From Syntrophales bacterium (GTDB lineage Bacteria; Desulfobacterota; Syntrophia; Syntrophales; UBA6807), in contig JAXGPA010000001.1 of the NCBI GenBank assembly GCA_040767195.1, positions 832,001 to 896,000 on the forward strand: DNA of 64,000 nucleotides. Direction: 5' to 3'. This document shows positions 9,325-18,791 of the stretch, piece by piece. Numbering within the stretch: the stretch's first letter is position 1; each line of letters begins with the position of its first letter. Below the pieces are notes generated by a model. It was not told the DNA's origin. It ran no database searches and worked only from the letters and a program-made list of their open reading frames with translations. A program made the position numbers and the translations under genes.

Positions 9325-10350
9325 TCAGGCGACCCTTTCCCGGTCTTCCCGGATAAACGCCAGAAGTTCCCTTGAGAAACCGGACTCGAGGACGATGCTC
9401 TCGAAATCGGGCGGGCACAGGATCTTCTGCATGAGGAAGCCGTCGCCGTCGAACCAGCGGGGCAGGGGGCCGCCGAAAAAATAACCGGCCTCCCGAAGGG
9501 CTTCCACCGACGCGCCCGCCCAGGGTTCGGTCAAATTCAGCCAGGCCTGAAAAACAACGCACCCCTTGTCGGCGGCCTCCCGTTCCAGGTCGGCCAGGCG
9601 GCTTCCGAGATCCGCCCCCGAGACGGGAACAGCGATCCGGGCAACCCCGGCAAAATCAAAGACGGTCATCCCGGCGCGGCTGACACGGCCGGCGGGAAAC
9701 GGGTCCACCGATCGGGCGAGGTCCCGGGAATCGTCGAGACGCCCGTAAATCCTGTGGAGGACGTCTTCGTAAACGGCGGGAAGAAAGACCCGGTGCGGCC
9801 TGGGTCGAAAGGAACGGAAGACGCTCAGGGTCGCCACCCGTCCCGGAGCGCTTTTTTCACGGGTGTACGCCTCGGCGGGCATGAGGGCCACTTCGATGGC
9901 GGTTTCCGAAAAGCCGAATGCCGCCACGGCCTTCTGCATGTAAGGATGGTTGCAGACCGCCTCCCCGAAGATCTCTTCGATGTGGGGCTGGCGCGGGACA
10001 AAATCATTGTAGAGATAATCGTGCAGTTTTCCCGTGATCCCCGATTTTCGATACGCCTTGAGAACCAGTCCCACGCCGTGTTCGTAGATGGCGTCGCAGG
10101 GGGTCGACCGGTACAGGTGGGTCACACCGACGACGTCCCCGGAAACGGTGCGGGCCACGATGGAATAGTAACGGCCCTCGCGATTGGCCTCTGTCACGGC
10201 ACCGGGATCATAAAACAGCCTGATCGGGTAGTGTTCGCCATAGACCGCCCGGAAGAGACGGACGATCCCCTCGGCGTCTTCGGGCCGAAAGCTGTCTACG
10301 ACGACATCTTCAGGGATCGATCTTTCGCTCCCGCTGTCACGAGTTTCCAT
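9325..10350 (-). CDS. GNAT-like N-acyltransferase, uncharacterised
   Basis: FRPEDAEGIVRLFRAVYG, GLVLKAYRKSGI (acetyl-CoA-binding-like motif), GEAVCNHPYMQK; GGAGGA RBS. Confidence 0.7.
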   Translation of the reverse strand: METRDSGSERSIPEDVVVDSFRPEDAEGIVRLFRAVYGEHYPIRLFYDPGAVTEANREGRYYSIVARTVSGDVVGVTHLYRSTPCDAIYEHGVGLVLKAYRKSGITGKLHDYLYNDFVPRQPHIEEIFGEAVCNHPYMQKAVAAFGFSETAIEVALMPAEAYTREKSAPGRVATLSVFRSFRPRPHRVFLPAVYEDVLHRIYGRLDDSRDLARSVDPFPAGRVSRAGMTVFDFAGVARIAVPVSGADLGSRLADLEREAADKGCVVFQAWLNLTEPWAGASVEALREAGYFFGGPLPRWFDGDGFLMQKILCPPDFESIVLESGFSRELLAFIREDRERVA

Positions 10351-10401
10351 GGTCCCGGTCCTCCCTGTTTCGTATTTTCGTCATCGGTTTTCCTTCCCCC
10401 G

Positions 10402-11652
10402 TCATTCCCCTTCCTTTTCCCCGCAGTGTAAAGAAACGGGGTCGCAAAAGCCACTTGGTTCTTTCGTTCCCCGGCGGCCGAGGGCCGTCATCAGTATCGA
10501 AGCCAGGCCGATGTGGCCCGCGGCCAGGTAAAAGAGGATGTCAAACCCCGAACCGAGGGCGATAAGGGTCCCGCCGGCGTAGGGCATGAGGAAATAGGCG
10601 GCGTCCATGGTGAAGAGGGTCATGTTGGTGTTGAGCCCCCTCAGGGCCGGCGTAGAGGCCGAGAAGAGAAGCGCGTTGAGCAGAGGCAAGGCCACGCCCA
10701 TGGAAAACCCGTAAAGGACGGCCAGTAAATAATAGGTTACCGGGGAAGACGTCAGGGGAAGAAGGAAAAGACACGGAGCGAGCAGGGCGAACATCTTCCA
10801 CACCGTGGAACGCTTGTCCATCCGGTCGAAAAGGACCGCACCGAGCGCGCGGACGGCGATCATCGCCATCATGGAAAGACTGAAGAAGAGTCCGACGGCA
10901 CCGGCTCCGGTCACAAGGGACAGGTCCTTCATGAAATAAAATACCGTGGCGTGGGCAAGATAGACCAGGAAAATGGTTGAAAGAAGAAAAACCACGGAAC
11001 GGAGACGGAAATTCTCCCGGATCTCGGAAAAGGCCGGGCGGCGGAGCAGCGCCCCGTCCAGGCCCAGCAACGCCTGGCCGATCCGTCTCCAGACGGCCAG
11101 GAGGATCAGGATGGCCGCCACCGAAAAAACCGAAACGGCGGCATAGACGTCCGCTTCGCTTCGCACGTGGGGAAAAATCGCCTCGGCCAGGGGAGGGATG
11201 ACGGCGAAGGGAATCATCGTCGCGATGCTGAGGGTGCTGAACCCCTGGCCGCTCCTCTCCCCGGGAATGAAGTTCACCACGAGCGCGATGACGGCGGACG
11301 TGAGGAGGACAAAAACGGTGCCGTGGAGCATGCGCAAAACAATCATGGCGGGCACGGAGGTCACCCACAGGTAGGAACAGGAAACGGCAATGAGCAGGAC
11401 AAGCGAAGCCATCGTCACGGCCAGGGCGTTGCGCATGTGCAGCCAGGGCAGGACAACAAGCCGGAGGATGAAAGCCGACATGGGTTCGAGACCCACGAGA
11501 AACCCCCGCCAGGGAAGGGGAATGTCGATGGTGCCCAGGTAGTGATAGAAGCTGTAGAACACGCTGACGTTACAGAAGGCCGACACGATGACGAGGCACA
11601 GGGCGAGAAATTCGAAGGACAGGAGCTTTCGGGGAGAAGACGGCTGGTCCAC
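10402..11652 (-). CDS. MFS transporter
   Basis: About 12 hydrophobic segments; LRMLHG and PGERSGQG MFS-type motifs. Confidence 0.85.
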   Translation of the reverse strand: MDQPSSPRKLLSFEFLALCLVIVSAFCNVSVFYSFYHYLGTIDIPLPWRGFLVGLEPMSAFILRLVVLPWLHMRNALAVTMASLVLLIAVSCSYLWVTSVPAMIVLRMLHGTVFVLLTSAVIALVVNFIPGERSGQGFSTLSIATMIPFAVIPPLAEAIFPHVRSEADVYAAVSVFSVAAILILLAVWRRIGQALLGLDGALLRRPAFSEIRENFRLRSVVFLLSTIFLVYLAHATVFYFMKDLSLVTGAGAVGLFFSLSMMAMIAVRALGAVLFDRMDKRSTVWKMFALLAPCLFLLPLTSSPVTYYLLAVLYGFSMGVALPLLNALLFSASTPALRGLNTNMTLFTMDAAYFLMPYAGGTLIALGSGFDILFYLAAGHIGLASILMTALGRRGTKEPSGFCDPVSLHCGEKEGE

Positions 11653-11664
11653 GGGCGCCGCCTT

Positions 11665-12771
11665 TCAGGCCAGGATCTTTTTCAGGGCCGCCGCGAAGGC
11701 CTCCATGGCCTCCAGGCCCGCCAGGGTGACACGGATGTGATTCGGGTAGCGGAATCCTGTCATGGGCCGGATCATGACCCCCTCGTGCATGAGCTTCCGG
11801 TAGGCCAGGGTGTCGCTCCCGGGCAGTTTCACGATGAGAAAGTTCCCTTCCCCGCTCGTGACGGGAAGCCCCATTCCGCCCATTTCCTCCTTCAGGTAAT
11901 CCCGGCTTTGCCGGACCATGTCCCGGGTGCGGCCGACGTGGCCCGTGTCGTCCCGGAGACAGGCCAGGGCCGCCTCCTGGGCGATGGTGTTGACGGAATA
12001 AACGACGCAGGTCCTGCGGATCATGTCGACGACTTTCAGGTCGCCCGCCAGATACCCGATGCGAAGCCCCGCGATCCCGTACATCTTGGAAAAGGTCCTG
12101 AAGACGACCAGGTTGGGATAGTCCCGGGTGAGGGAAATCCCGTCGGGGTAATCCTCCGCCTCGACGAATTCGAAGTAGGCCTCGTCGACGACCACGATCT
12201 GCCGCCCCCCGACGGCGTCGAGAAAAGCGGTGAGGGTGTCCCGGGACCAGTAGGTCCCCGTCGGGTTGTTGGGGTTGCAAAGAAAGATCACCTTCGTGGC
12301 GCCATCGATCCTTTCCAGCATGGCGCCGTCGTCGAACCGCCCTTCCTTCAGGGGGACGACCCGGGCCTCGATGCCGGAAAAGACGGCCACCCACTCGTAG
12401 ACGGCGAAGGTCCTGTCCGCCGTGACGATGTTGTCGCCCCGCTCACAGAAGGCCTTGATCACGAAGGTGATGACCTCGTTGGCGCCGTTTCCGACGATGA
12501 CCTGGTCGGGGTCGATGCCGTGGAAAGCGGCAAGCTCGCGGCGCAGGTCGTAGGAATCCCCGCTGGGATAAACGGCGCCCCGGGGGGGCGGGAACCGCCG
12601 GATAACCTCCTGGGCGCCCGGCGGCGGGCCCAGGGGGTTTTCGTTGTTGTTGAGACGGATGAGGCGACGGCAGCCATAGAGCTTTTGAAGCTCCCGGTCG
12701 GGCTTGCTGGGGATGTAGGGCTCGAATTCCCGGACGCAGGCGGGTACAAGACGGTCAAGGTCGGGTTTCAT
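11665..12771 (-). CDS. HisC-like class I/II PLP-dependent enzyme
   Basis: NENPLGP, GNGANEVI, CNPNNPTG, DEAYFEF and RTFSKMYGIAGLRIGY (PLP lysine); start taken at ATG 12771. Confidence 0.85.
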   Translation of the reverse strand: MKPDLDRLVPACVREFEPYIPSKPDRELQKLYGCRRLIRLNNNENPLGPPPGAQEVIRRFPPPRGAVYPSGDSYDLRRELAAFHGIDPDQVIVGNGANEVITFVIKAFCERGDNIVTADRTFAVYEWVAVFSGIEARVVPLKEGRFDDGAMLERIDGATKVIFLCNPNNPTGTYWSRDTLTAFLDAVGGRQIVVVDEAYFEFVEAEDYPDGISLTRDYPNLVVFRTFSKMYGIAGLRIGYLAGDLKVVDMIRRTCVVYSVNTIAQEAALACLRDDTGHVGRTRDMVRQSRDYLKEEMGGMGLPVTSGEGNFLIVKLPGSDTLAYRKLMHEGVMIRPMTGFRYPNHIRVTLAGLEAMEAFAAALKKILA

Positions 12772-14086
12772 GGTATTGAAAAACCACCAGGTCGGCCTGG
12801 CCGGCAAAGGGGATGATCATGCCGGGCCTGAAGCGGCGGCCCAGGAGAACGGGAACCAGGGGGGCCTGCCAGGAAACGCCCAGGTCAATCTCGAAGAGAA
12901 GGTTCAGAAACCCTTCCTCCCGGAGAAAACGGATGTGCCGTTCCACGTTCGCGGCCAGATCGTCTCCCGGCCACAGGGGCCGCAGGACGACCTCCGACCA
13001 TTCCCGACGGATCTCGGCGGAAAAGATGGAGGACCCTTTTAGCGTTTCTCCCAGGTCTTGGACCTCCCGGATATCCCGGGCCAGGAAGAGGCGCCCGTAT
13101 TCCCTTTCCAGAAACTCCTTGAGAGCCCCGTTCGTCCAGACAGGGCAGCCGGGATCCTCGTGAAGGAAACGGTACCAGGCCGGTCTGGCCAGGGCAGGCC
13201 CCTCGTCCCGGAAAAAGGCCAGGGACCCCAGGGGTTCGAACTGGGACCGGACCGGCTCGGGCAGGCCCGTGAGGCTGACAAGGCCAATGGCCCGGGTCCT
13301 CGCCACGGCGGCAATGGCGGCATCAAGGAGGGCCTCGGCGATCTCCTGCTCCCTCGACGGGTCGAAGACGTGGGGACCGACAATCTCGACGATCCGCTCG
13401 GTGAGAAACCGGAACAGGATGCCGCCGGCCACACGGCCCGCCCCGTCGACGGCCGCGATGACCTCGTTGTCCCCGGCGGCGACCATGTCGACCACTTTGC
13501 CCGGATAGTCGAAAAAGGCCGGTCCGGGCGAATCCGCCCGTCCCCGGGCCACCTCGCCGGCATACTGTTTCAGTGTCTCGGCGTCCGGGGTCCTTTGAAT
13601 CGTGAGGCCCTCCCGAAACGGGGCCGGCGGGTGGGCCACGTCCGGCAGAGGCGGATAGGTTTTTTCCTTTTCCACGGCCAGGCAGATCCGGCCCCGGCTC
13701 TCCTCGGTGATCCGAAGCCGGTCAACGGTTCGGGAAGCAATGACGAGGCCCATCTCCGCCAGGGCCTCGTCACTTTCAAACTGGCCGGTGGCGGTGATGT
13801 TGAGGGCGCCCATGTTCAGGGCCGCCACGGAAAAGCGGAACTCGACCCTCCCGTAGTACAGCCCGTTGACGGCGCGGATATCCACGGGTTCCACGGGACG
13901 GACATGAGAAATGATGTAAGAAAAGATCTCCTCGGCGGCGAGCCGGAGCTTGAGGGATTCCTCCCGCCCCATGCCCAGGGCCCGGACCGATGACTCGACG
14001 AAACCGGTGACGACGTCCAGGAAGGGCGACCGGGCCGGCAGTTGGATGCCCAGTGTGTCGTTGGAATGACGATTCGGAGGATTCAT
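12755..14086 (-). CDS. Fusion of degenerate RsbW/SpoIIAB-like HATPase domain and GNAT-like region, uncharacterised
   Basis: N-terminal LKLRLAAEEIF ... EMGLVIASRTVD resembles anti-sigma kinases; C-terminal half aligns by eye with 9325..10350. Confidence 0.65.
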   Translation of the reverse strand: MNPPNRHSNDTLGIQLPARSPFLDVVTGFVESSVRALGMGREESLKLRLAAEEIFSYIISHVRPVEPVDIRAVNGLYYGRVEFRFSVAALNMGALNITATGQFESDEALAEMGLVIASRTVDRLRITEESRGRICLAVEKEKTYPPLPDVAHPPAPFREGLTIQRTPDAETLKQYAGEVARGRADSPGPAFFDYPGKVVDMVAAGDNEVIAAVDGAGRVAGGILFRFLTERIVEIVGPHVFDPSREQEIAEALLDAAIAAVARTRAIGLVSLTGLPEPVRSQFEPLGSLAFFRDEGPALARPAWYRFLHEDPGCPVWTNGALKEFLEREYGRLFLARDIREVQDLGETLKGSSIFSAEIRREWSEVVLRPLWPGDDLAANVERHIRFLREEGFLNLLFEIDLGVSWQAPLVPVLLGRRFRPGMIIPFAGQADLVVFQYHETRP

Positions 14087-14222: not shown

Positions 14223-15014
14223 TCAGACAGCGAGGATGCCCTTGAAAACGGTGACGGCCTGCCCCCCGATAAAGACGCGGTCTTCGCCGACGCGGACCCG
14301 GATGACGCCGCCCCGCTCCGACGCCTGGAAGGCCGTGAATTCCCGCTTTCCCAGTTTCCGCTGCCAATAGGGGCCAAGGCTGCTGTGGGCTGAACCGGTT
14401 ACCGGGTCCTCGTCTACCCCCACGGCGGGGGCGAAAAAGCGGGAAACGAAATCAAAGCCGCCGGAACGGGCGCGGCTTGTCACGATAAACCCCCGGGCGG
14501 GGATATCCCGGAGGGCCTTCATGTCCGGGGACATGGCGCGAACCGTCTCCTCCCCGTCCACTTCCACGAGGTAATCGTAAACCGTCTTGCCCACATAGAT
14601 AGGGTTCACCCAAAGGGCTTCAGCCAGGCCGTCCGGGGTGCTGACCGGTTCGTCCGCCGTGGCGGGAAAATTCATCTCGATCCAGTCTCCGTCCCTGCGG
14701 GCGGTGAGAAGACCGCTCAACGTGTGAAACCGGGCCTCCCCATCTTTCGGGAGAACCCCTTCCTGCCACAGGATGTGGGCGCTCGCCAGGGTGGCGTGGC
14801 CGCACAGTTCCACCTCCACGAGGGGCGTGAACCACCGGAGCCGGAACCCGTCATTTTCTCTGTGCAGAAACGCCGTTTCCGAAAGATTCATTTCCCGGGC
14901 GACGGCCTGCATCCAGGAAGCCTCCGCCGGTTCTTCCAGAAGACAGACCCCCGCCGGATTCCCCCGGAAGGGGCGATCGGCAAAGGCATCCACCGTAAAG
15001 ATGGGAATAGCCAT
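14223..15014 (-). CDS. PhzF-family isomerase/epimerase
   Basis: VDAFADRPFRGNPAGV, NLSETAF, LRWFTP..EVELCGHATLA, EDPVTGSAH. Confidence 0.93.
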   Translation of the reverse strand: MAIPIFTVDAFADRPFRGNPAGVCLLEEPAEASWMQAVAREMNLSETAFLHRENDGFRLRWFTPLVEVELCGHATLASAHILWQEGVLPKDGEARFHTLSGLLTARRDGDWIEMNFPATADEPVSTPDGLAEALWVNPIYVGKTVYDYLVEVDGEETVRAMSPDMKALRDIPARGFIVTSRARSGGFDFVSRFFAPAVGVDEDPVTGSAHSSLGPYWQRKLGKREFTAFQASERGGVIRVRVGEDRVFIGGQAVTVFKGILAV

Positions 15015-16875: not shown

Positions 16876-17889
16876 TCACCAGTTGTTGTTCAGGATACGA
16901 CAGGAGGCTTGACAGTGCCGAATCTCGCGGCGGAGACGTCGGGTCCTTTCGGATCGCCATATCTCCAGGGGTTCCTGCTCCAGGAGATTTCCCGCCGGCT
17001 GCATGCCGTTGCAGAGCCTCACATCGCCGTAGGGATCCACGAGAAAATTGGCATATCCGCAGGGACAGGGAATATTTTTTAGCGATTCCTCGTCCCGGTA
17101 ATAACGGGAAAACAGTTGAAGCTGTTTCAGGGGATTCAGAACGGGAAAACCCTTCCTTTTTAACCGGATGATCTCCGTCATGACCCTGTCGAGAGCATCC
17201 AGGTCATCGATCCATTCGGGATCCCAGCGGTACCACCCGGGTGCCGGCCGGCGGTTCCGGTTTTCCTCGAACTTGTTGTGAACATTCACCGCCGTCAGGA
17301 CCTGAAAAAGGAGCCCCTTCAGGTTATTTTCCCGGGCCAGCCGCACGAGGGCTTCCAGTTCCCCGAGATTGGACCGGAGAATAACCGTTTCCAGGACGAC
17401 GGGGACACCGTTTTCCTTGAGAAGACGGACCGCCGTCATGGTTTTTTCGAAACTCCCGTCGACACCCCGGGTTTTGTCGTGGGTTTCCGGTTTAACGCCG
17501 TTCAGGGAAAGGATCATCTGACGAATGCCCAGGCGGCCCAGCTTTTCCGCGGCCGGCCGATCGATGAGGGTGCCGTTGGAAATGACGATCAGCTGGAAAT
17601 TCATTTCTCGGGAGTCTTTGAGAATCTCCAGAAATTCACTCTTGCAGAAGGGCTCCGCCCCTTCGAAGACGAGAAGGTTCGTCAGGGCGAACCCTTTCAG
17701 GGACCTGAGGATCCGGGTCCACTCTTTCCCCGTCAATTCCTCGGTTCTTGGCTGACCGCGCCATTTAGAGCAGGTCACGCAACGGAGGTTGCAGGCATCC
17801 GTCAGGGCCAGGTTGACTCTCAGAGGACGAAGAGGGATTCTTGATAAACAGGCTATTTCCCTATAAAGTCGTTTTACTTCGCTCTTCAC
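16876..17889 (-). CDS. Radical SAM protein with SPASM/twitch domain
   Basis: CNLRCVTC, HDKTRGVDGSF and C-terminal CPCG...VDPYGDVRLC...C...C; GTG 17889 overlaps the upstream stop (GTGA). Confidence 0.88.
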   Translation of the reverse strand: MKSEVKRLYREIACLSRIPLRPLRVNLALTDACNLRCVTCSKWRGQPRTEELTGKEWTRILRSLKGFALTNLLVFEGAEPFCKSEFLEILKDSREMNFQLIVISNGTLIDRPAAEKLGRLGIRQMILSLNGVKPETHDKTRGVDGSFEKTMTAVRLLKENGVPVVLETVILRSNLGELEALVRLARENNLKGLLFQVLTAVNVHNKFEENRNRRPAPGWYRWDPEWIDDLDALDRVMTEIIRLKRKGFPVLNPLKQLQLFSRYYRDEESLKNIPCPCGYANFLVDPYGDVRLCNGMQPAGNLLEQEPLEIWRSERTRRLRREIRHCQASCRILNNNW

Positions 17890-18791
17890 TCGCACCCCTT
17901 CGTGATCTTTTGCTCGCAAGAAACCATCCCGAGGCCGTAAGAAACCATGGCGGCGGAAATCCAGGCCAGGGAAAGCGCCGCTTCATGGGGTTTCATTCGG
18001 TAAGCCCGCCTGTTTCTCAAGATTTTCGACATCAGGGATATCCCTCTGCCCGAAGCGAACACCACGGGAACAGCCCAGGGAAAATCGGTGAAACGCGCAC
18101 CGGGGAGGCTTCTGTCAAGGCACCGGGTGATCAGCGTGTTGGGTCCGTAAACCCGAAACCACATTCGAAGGGATTGGAGGAAGGTTTCGGATTCGTGAAA
18201 GACCCGCAGACTCGGTTCGTGGCACACCGGAATGCCTTTTCGCTCGAAAACCCGGGCCAGAAGCAGGGCCCCTGCACCGTCGCTTACCGGCGGCTTCACG
18301 GGAAGGTCGGGCAGCACGGCTTTCAGCGCTTCTTTCCGGATCACGAAATTCCCGTCAAAAAGGTTGGCGATCCGTTTCCTCTCGGGTGATAAAAATTCCC
18401 CGTGGGTCGTCACCCCTGAGAACCTTTCCACGAACCGTTCCCCGTGATCCACGGCGCCGCTCAGAACCTGTCTTTTTCCCAAATGCTCTTTAATCCGGGA
18501 AATCCAGTCACGACTGACGATACAGTGGGAATCGGTGAAGGCCAGGACGTCAAACCGCGACACCTCTGCCGCCTGCCGCAGGAACCCGAACCAGCCTTCT
18601 CCTTTTTCCAGAAGGACGGTCCGGTAGCCGGCAGCCGGTCCCTCTACGGAGCCAAGGAGACCGTGGCCGGCGACAACCACTTCAAAGGGAACAGGAGCTC
18701 CCTGTTTCTGAATGAGAATCGCCGAGAGGGAGGATTCGAGAGGGATCGTCCCTTTCTTGTCCGTCAGAAAAACACTGATCCCGCTGTCCAT
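17886..18791 (-). CDS. Divergent GT2-like glycosyltransferase with C-terminal membrane segments
   Basis: FEVVV, DVLAFTDSHC (DxD-like position), GNFVIRKE and hydrophobic C-terminus. Confidence 0.65.
   Translation of the reverse strand: MDSGISVFLTDKKGTIPLESSLSAILIQKQGAPVPFEVVVAGHGLLGSVEGPAAGYRTVLLEKGEGWFGFLRQAAEVSRFDVLAFTDSHCIVSRDWISRIKEHLGKRQVLSGAVDHGERFVERFSGVTTHGEFLSPERKRIANLFDGNFVIRKEALKAVLPDLPVKPPVSDGAGALLLARVFERKGIPVCHEPSLRVFHESETFLQSLRMWFRVYGPNTLITRCLDRSLPGARFTDFPWAVPVVFASGRGISLMSKILRNRRAYRMKPHEAALSLAWISAAMVSYGLGMVSCEQKITKGCE

Follow-up and report, generated by a model that had tools for sequence, protein, structure and literature searches.

A conserved operon of Syntrophales and other anaerobes that pairs a likely double pseudoenzyme with a HisC-like PLP enzyme

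What might be the function of an operon that joins a protein with both an anti-sigma-kinase fold and an acetyltransferase fold to a HisC-like enzyme, a transporter and a second acetyltransferase-like protein? Such an operon occupies positions 9325 to 14086 of a 64,000-nucleotide (nt) stretch (hereafter the window; positions 832,001 to 896,000 of contig JAXGPA010000001.1, assembly GCA_040767195.1) from a Syntrophales bacterium. A first-pass annotation had described four minus-strand genes here, and their coordinates, re-read from the sequence, agree with it: gene A (12755..14086, 443 amino acids (aa)) overlaps gene B (11665..12771, 368 aa, with its ATG at 12771) by 17 nt, gene C (10402..11652, 416 aa) follows after a gap of 12 nt, and gene D (9325..10350, 341 aa) after a further 51 nt. 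A contains an RsbW/SpoIIAB-fold domain, a GNAT domain and a second alpha/beta domain held in common with D; B is a pyridoxal 5'-phosphate (PLP) enzyme; C is an MFS transporter (MFS_1, E 7.7e-18). A and B form an almost obligate pair. We propose, tentatively and with somewhat less than even confidence, that the operon forms the conserved centre of a larger module, one whose task is to dispose of or modify a single specific small primary amine. This amine would probably be an amino-heterocycle, and A would be a catalytically dead regulatory subunit of B.

The A–B pair and its gene neighbourhood

Strong matches to A were found in 45 of 401 Desulfobacterota genomes (51 when weak matches are counted), and the module is present in about 11% of the 401. 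A and B occur together in 44 of the 46 genomes that hold either, the two misses being fragmentary. Conserved co-occurrence, which the first-pass annotation had expected of a real system, was borne out by a survey of gene neighbourhoods: of the 92 loci holding both genes, 91 have them side by side on the same strand (loci carry L numbers below), the module is kept across many anaerobes, and A–B fusions exist (L099, P0300). Among 80 A loci, B is present in 77; two of the three exceptions lie at contig ends, and L085 is the sole untruncated A without B. The gene order D-A-B-MFS is still kept at 25% identity in A (L139), and A has drifted more than B (24-59% against 55-84% identity). The same 80 loci hold MFS genes (56), D (46), the large subunit of an Xdh-family enzyme (39), MocA-like genes (19), STAS genes (19), RsbW (17), a dCache-HAMP-SpoIIE phosphatase (14), an NMT1-type binding protein (11) and a GDSL gene (9). 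Counts for 60 loci with full flanks, which may include overlapping records of one genome and in which kin are not independent, are 53 for a transporter, 48 for D, 33 for the Xdh large subunit, 19 for STAS, 13 for the phosphatase and 8 for GDSL.

The named relatives closest to A and D come from Syntrophales, and A is carried by Syntrophus gentianae. Copies of the module are also found in Pelotomaculum bins and on plasmid pTs417 of the purple sulfur bacterium Ca. Thiodictyon (NZ_CP020371.1; L177). The plasmid copy has an IS607 element where the Xdh large subunit would be expected, and an SLC23 nucleobase-type transporter lies about 8 kb beyond it. In four Syntrophales loci (L043, L067, L071, L078) a family of 550-790-aa proteins without a Pfam or NCBIfam match recurs near the module. 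We were not able to find a description of the module in the full texts searched, a scope outside which most subscription journals and supplementary files fall, and the suggestion that this is an undescribed conserved system has thus held up. All of its parts have known folds; as far as we have seen, it is the combination, the clade of B and the doubly degenerate A that are undescribed.

The Xdh-family enzyme forms a clade of its own, found in 38 of the 401 genomes, 35 of them within the 46-genome A/B set. It scores below every NCBIfam cut-off (best 533-536 against 784), and the substrate Glu/Arg pair seems to be absent: there is an Asp in the motif GGKD (40 of 40), and Leu or Met stands at what we take to be the Arg site of the xanthine enzymes. 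Eleven of the 46 A/B genomes lack the clade, including the present genome, which has tungsten-type aldehyde oxidoreductases. Some loci carry other enzymes. Genes of the adenosine/adenine deaminase family lie inside the operon in L142, L143, L183 and L091; their closest solved structure is 3OU8, presumably the Pa0148 protein. A reference title in PMC6281700 concerns adenine deamination by the Pa0148 protein. L141 has a cytidine-deaminase-fold gene in the operon. All five deaminase loci are without Xdh; three of them can be assigned to genomes (G040, G366, G353), and these genomes lack the Xdh clade. A MATE transporter replaces MFS in four loci (L186, L260, L261, L267), one of which (L260) has a flavin amine oxidase after MATE-D; in L271 and L155 the sensor genes are followed by genes for a nucleoside phosphorylase and a PfkB kinase. 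The deaminases and the amine oxidase within the operons remove or mask amino groups.

The second recurring group of genes resembles a partner switch. A STAS, RsbW or phosphatase gene lies directly before A in L066, L070, L072, L074, L090, L103, L155, L258, L259, L267 and L275. The STAS proteins of related loci keep their YxSSxG site and their RsbW proteins keep the N and G boxes; no sigma factor was seen among the selection of neighbours scanned. The dCache domain of the phosphatase is closest to 3LI8, 3LIC and 3LIB, the last of which is an amine-type sensor according to the available part of PMC10104139. When the domain is compared with 3LIB, the aromatic pair, the Met-x-Ser/Thr and the Asp of the seven-residue amine motif align, and the Arg/Asp cap and the Trp fall outside the mapped positions. 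The purine motif, as given in the accessible portion of PMC11245519, has no match in this sensor. The binding protein is ThiY-like (3IX1, E 9e-12); 31 of 45 module genomes have it, as against 9 of 35 hand-picked related genomes. In the present genome STAS, RsbW, an NMT1-type binding protein and a dCache-HAMP-SpoIIE phosphatase lie together at C1:1,000,439-1,004,154 (L153). They are 42-63% identical to those inside related modules, and this set is probably the missing half of the operon's system.

Folds, motifs and kinship of the encoded proteins

The AlphaFold2 models of A and D (mean pLDDT, the model's own confidence score, 90.9 each) divide A into three domains. In the predicted model residues 8-145 (13652..14065, minus strand) have the Bergerat (GHKL) fold of the anti-sigma type: they match SpoIIAB/RsbW (1l0o_A) with Z 16.2 and a root-mean-square deviation of 3.2 over 136 aligned residues (Foldseek E 6.5e-8), and Pfam HATPase_c_2 matches the N-terminus weakly (E 0.002). 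The first-pass annotation had recognised an anti-sigma-kinase-like domain here that lacks the N-box Asn and the G1 box, and this proved to be true of the whole family, which thus lacks the N-box Asn and G1 Asp-x-Gly by which RsbW holds Mg-ATP. The position of the N-box Asn is Tyr57 in the window's protein and Tyr (60%), His (21%) or Phe (7%) across 136 relatives, and the G1 Asp is missing in A and across the 136. The N-box glutamates are kept, with Glu52 in 91% and Glu53 in 96% of these relatives.

Residues 158-313 of A (13148..13615, minus strand) have a GNAT fold (Z about 11 to several GNATs), and in the 136 relatives the acetyl-CoA loop of motif A is without any conserved residue, Arg and Gly included. 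The GNAT domain has invariant residues specific to its family (D200, G237, P238, R306, E310, D311, G313); together with Glu52/53, N96, R337, D401 and D432 these are 91-100% conserved in the 136. Judged by these motifs, A is likely to be a double pseudoenzyme, having lost those of both the kinase type and the acetyltransferase. The earlier idea of a catalytically dead ATPase-fold sensor that gates the pathway therefore stands in part: the dead motifs hold across the family, whereas in place of the ATP-sensing role we judge it more likely that the domain is the STAS-binding output of a partner switch.

The first-pass annotation also expected GNAT folds in both A and D, and structure searches with the two models recovered them. 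In the predicted model of D, residues 12-186 match GNATs with Z 13.2 and, unlike A, carry motif A (Arg-x-x-Gly): among 71 sequences Arg101 is conserved in 70, Gly104 in 48, and Glu90 and His135 in all 71. D is therefore likely to be an acyltransferase, presumably an N-acyltransferase, and is the only likely one of the two. Pfam and NCBIfam assign no family to the window's D, and a weak Acetyltransf_1 match appears in 26 of 117 D relatives. D-type genes are found in several other settings. L147:7567-11790 has four in tandem followed by MFS, beside an RND pump, and two or three tandem copies occur in L042, L044, L058 and L059; in L146:8269-10308 and L156:1742-3906, from genomes without A or B, a D-type GNAT is fused or adjacent to an NAD-dependent sugar epimerase/dehydratase.

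The C-terminal parts of A and D had been read as paralogous. Pairwise BLASTP did not support this (best E 0.17), whereas family profiles and predicted structures did. Shallow profiles of A and D gave a probability of 7.8% (E 0.004), and deep profiles (hhalign, 136 A against 69 D sequences) gave 96% with E 3e-9 over 276 columns; the 69 D rows are 72 minus three bridging rows, and with these kept the values are 97% and 9e-12. Shuffled controls scored below 0 bits, and the four motif pairs originally quoted for A and D are in register. In the AlphaFold2 models A residues 314-438 (12773..13147, minus strand) and D residues 187-310 agree in the order of their strands and helices. Structure searches with A and D were taken up by matches to domains other than this common C-terminal one, and a sequence search of the PDB with the two alignments gave nothing meaningful. 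The two proteins are further bridged by a family of ~500-aa RsbW-GNAT fusions that both profiles match (best E 2e-16 for A and 5e-43 for D); Pfam finds HATPase_c_2 and Acetyltransf_1 in it, and Atlas clusters concur. Unlike the A family, this bridging family keeps the N-box Asn (13 of 19) and the motif-A Arg (19 of 19). In L119 and L123 such a fusion is flanked by a PilZ gene on one side and a DUF2156 (LPG_synthase_C) gene on the other.

B is of the Aminotran_1_2/hisC type (subfamily I-beta), with catalytic Lys229 and the PLP motifs intact, and scores above the TIGR01141 cut-off for HisC (298 against 276.55 bits). A role as CobD (threonine-phosphate decarboxylase) was considered and rejected, as B scores 187 against a TIGR01140 cut-off of 290.55 and no cob gene occurs among the annotated neighbours. 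B does not group with its relatives' HisC orthologues: in a quick tree with midpoint root, 18 B and 21 HisC rows are split with SH-aLRT branch support of 99 and a stem of 1.9. In 45 of the 401 genomes the match to B reaches 55% identity or more, and the remaining matches do not exceed 41%. Members of the clade share 55-84% identity with one another and 41% or less with ordinary HisC; across 90 B sequences, 139 positions show conservation of 95% or higher, and dozens of invariant positions are specific to the clade.

The possibility that B is simply the genome's only hisC is contradicted by a higher-scoring hisC on contig C6, which also carries hisD. A separate hisC above the cut-off is present in 39 of 41 module genomes, the two without it being 94% and 89% complete; the 41 are the 45 module genomes less this one and three with partial B. 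The other hisC of this genome (L001; G000:C6:191497-192504) forms a very long branch when set against the HisC usual in Desulfobacterota; it lies 25 kb from hisD, next to genes for lipoate ligase and GcvH. Compared with the pocket residues given in the available text of PMC4703992, B keeps Tyr19, Asn98, Tyr258 and both C-terminal arginines and has Val257 in place of a Pro. Because most HisC pocket residues are kept, B may plausibly act on a related substrate, anionic or heterocyclic, and some HisC activity is possible.

A possible function and its rivals

In the module that we favour, B would transaminate one small amine, the Xdh-family enzyme of the larger module would oxidise the aldehyde or ring, D would N-acetylate the amine, and MFS (or MATE) would move the amine or its product across the membrane. 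Sensing would proceed through the periplasmic binding protein and the amine-type dCache phosphatase, which would dephosphorylate the STAS protein and so oppose the intact RsbW kinase. Unphosphorylated STAS protein binds the SpoIIAB-type domain in SpoIIAB itself; here it would bind the dead kinase domain of A, in which the N-box glutamates are kept, and thereby switch B, A itself being presumably blind to ATP and acetyl-CoA. The first-pass annotation had spoken of making or modifying an N-acylated amine; disposal of an amine seems at least as likely as making one, because a molybdenum hydroxylase and further enzymes that remove amines are usually part of the module.

Several points weigh against this proposal. 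The four sensor genes of this genome lie 155 kb from the operon, and sensor genes of this kind are enriched in but not exclusive to module genomes; the same set also accompanies leupeptin-type cassettes (L130). Xdh is lacking in 27 of the 60 full-flank loci, 25 of which also lack a deaminase, and the deaminase cases are few, about four being independent. An amine-type sensor on the one hand, and nucleobase-type deaminases and binding protein on the other, point to somewhat different chemistry. B may possibly retain HisC or aromatic aminotransferase activity, and the MATE substitution and the kinship of D to the capping GNAT of leupeptin-type operons fit biosynthesis equally well.

Biosynthesis with export and self-sensing, in the manner of an autoinducer, is the possibility that we take most seriously among the alternatives, although we consider it rather doubtful. 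Here B would convert a keto or aldehyde compound of primary metabolism into the amine, D would cap it and MFS or MATE would export it; a membrane-anchored GDSL hydrolase would uncap it, the dCache phosphatase would sense it and feed back through STAS and A, and Xdh and the deaminases would degrade the signal. The D profile does match the GNAT of a LuxE/reductase/PaaK/GNAT operon of the leup type (L277, E 4e-25), and the four MATE loci, the GDSL gene in 9 of 80 loci, the sufficiency of four genes in this genome and the extreme conservation of B, which suits one product, all fit such a scheme. We favour disposal because amino-group removal is common to all the accessory enzymes and the module has no recurring enzyme for acyl activation or precursor supply; moreover FAD/NAD-type molybdenum enzymes are expected to work oxidatively, and the tandem D copies, up to four in L147, look like detoxification arrays. 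A more elaborate picture, an undescribed signalling loop of anaerobes in which a HisC-derived enzyme makes a heterocyclic amine that is capped by a GNAT, exported and sensed by an amine-type phosphatase, while a doubly dead kinase/acetyltransferase gates the synthase with no sigma factor involved, we regard as unlikely.

The conserved residues of A invite the thought that the protein is not dead at all, but has built a new active or ligand site and works as an enzyme together with B, perhaps channelling an unstable intermediate. N96, D200, R306, E310, D311, S353, H384 and D401 are conserved at 91-98% in the 136 relatives and A–B fusions occur; these residues could also make up an interface, A changes far more rapidly than B, and the kept RsbW fold and the adjoining STAS genes would be left unexplained, which makes an enzymatic A improbable. 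We give still less credence to B being a second, regulated histidinol-phosphate or aromatic amino-acid aminotransferase that feeds aromatic acid catabolism. Its TIGR01141 score, its pocket and the annotation of the pTs417 copy as hisC speak for this; against it stand the separate clade with its own invariant positions, the second hisC of nearly all module genomes, the absence of his genes or a keto-acid decarboxylase alongside B in annotated loci, and the strict coupling of B to A, D, a transporter and Xdh.

The operon would mark a pathway, hitherto without a name, in roughly one of every nine Desulfobacterota genomes, those of syntrophs from digesters and sediments among them; Syntrophus gentianae offers a cultured carrier, and one copy is plasmid-borne. 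It also flags a PLP clade annotated as hisC and a new clade of molybdenum hydroxylases. If A gates B, this would be a partner switch that has a metabolic enzyme as its output through a pseudoenzyme subunit; if a product is exported and sensed, it would be a candidate signal of syntrophic communities.

Surroundings and comparison with known systems

As the first-pass annotation had noted, no his or cob genes flank the operon, which is bordered by a PhzF-family gene and a zincin. The PhzF-family gene (14223-15011, minus strand) lies 136 nt upstream of A on the same strand and was rejected as a part of the module, being present in none of the 80 related loci. Each of the four genes is partly covered by contigs from RNA libraries of two studies. 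In two runs such contigs span the A/B junction, and contigs also connect the PhzF gene to A, although strand and a single transcript are not readable from them and DNA may be present. A promoter scan of the operon gave nothing above chance and a terminator scan no clear terminator; a riboswitch search in 8 loci matched only a tRNA. Further away, and unrelated to the operon, a Radical SAM/SPASM gene with a divergent family-2 glycosyltransferase lies at 16876-18791 (minus strand).

Among known systems, HisC and the aromatic aminotransferases (TIGR01141; PDB 3FFH, 4R2N) resemble B in fold family, PLP motifs, catalytic Lys and both C-terminal arginines. B differs from HisC in its long-stemmed clade, in Val257 at the pocket Pro, in Asn41/Asn42 and Ser70-Gly-Asp72, in being redundant with a separate hisC and in being tied to gene A. 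The xanthine/nicotinate dehydrogenase family (PucD, XdhA, NdhL, HcrA) shares with the module enzyme the three-subunit molybdenum/FeS/FAD architecture, with XdhC and MocA-like helpers in related loci; the module enzyme falls below all cut-offs, in its own clade, and is absent from this genome.

Leupeptin-type operons share the wider two-domain GNAT family of A and D and an MFS partner (leupABCD and MFS of Klebsiella; gene list as far as the available part of bioRxiv 10.64898/2026.08.25.747093 gives it). A plasmid operon with the leup gene set of that source matches L130 gene by gene at 35-47%, and its GNAT is matched by the D profile at the E of 4e-25 given above. Some of the ~500-aa fusions adjoin LuxE, LuxC and PaaK-like genes (L127, L130, L132). 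Together with L277 these loci form leupeptin-like cassettes of Desulfobacterota with RsbW-GNAT fusions, one of them a multi-domain protein of 1390 aa, and one cassette has the same STAS/RsbW/phosphatase sensor as the module. The module has a PLP enzyme and a molybdenum hydroxylase in place of the LuxE-like, reductase and PaaK-like genes. The idea that the operon is itself a leup cassette was rejected, since the operon and the annotated module neighbours contain no LuxE-like, acyl reductase or PaaK-like gene; tblastn found no LuxE homologue in this genome.

The partner switches SpoIIAB/SpoIIAA, RsbW/RsbV/RsbU and SiaB/SiaC are the closest parallel to the N-terminal domain of A in fold, and the loci of relatives have further parts of such a switch: STAS, an intact RsbW and a SpoIIE-type phosphatase. 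They differ in that the domain of A lacks the ATP-binding motifs and is fused to the GNAT pair, and in that no sigma factor was seen among the neighbours scanned, the proposed output being a metabolic enzyme. For the proposed action of A on B an analogy may be drawn to E. coli PanZ, a GNAT-fold protein that acts non-catalytically on the enzyme PanD (in the accessible text of PMC3496974). PanZ binds CoA or acetyl-CoA and activates a pyruvoyl proenzyme, whereas A has no CoA loop, carries an extra kinase-fold domain and is a putative binding partner of B.

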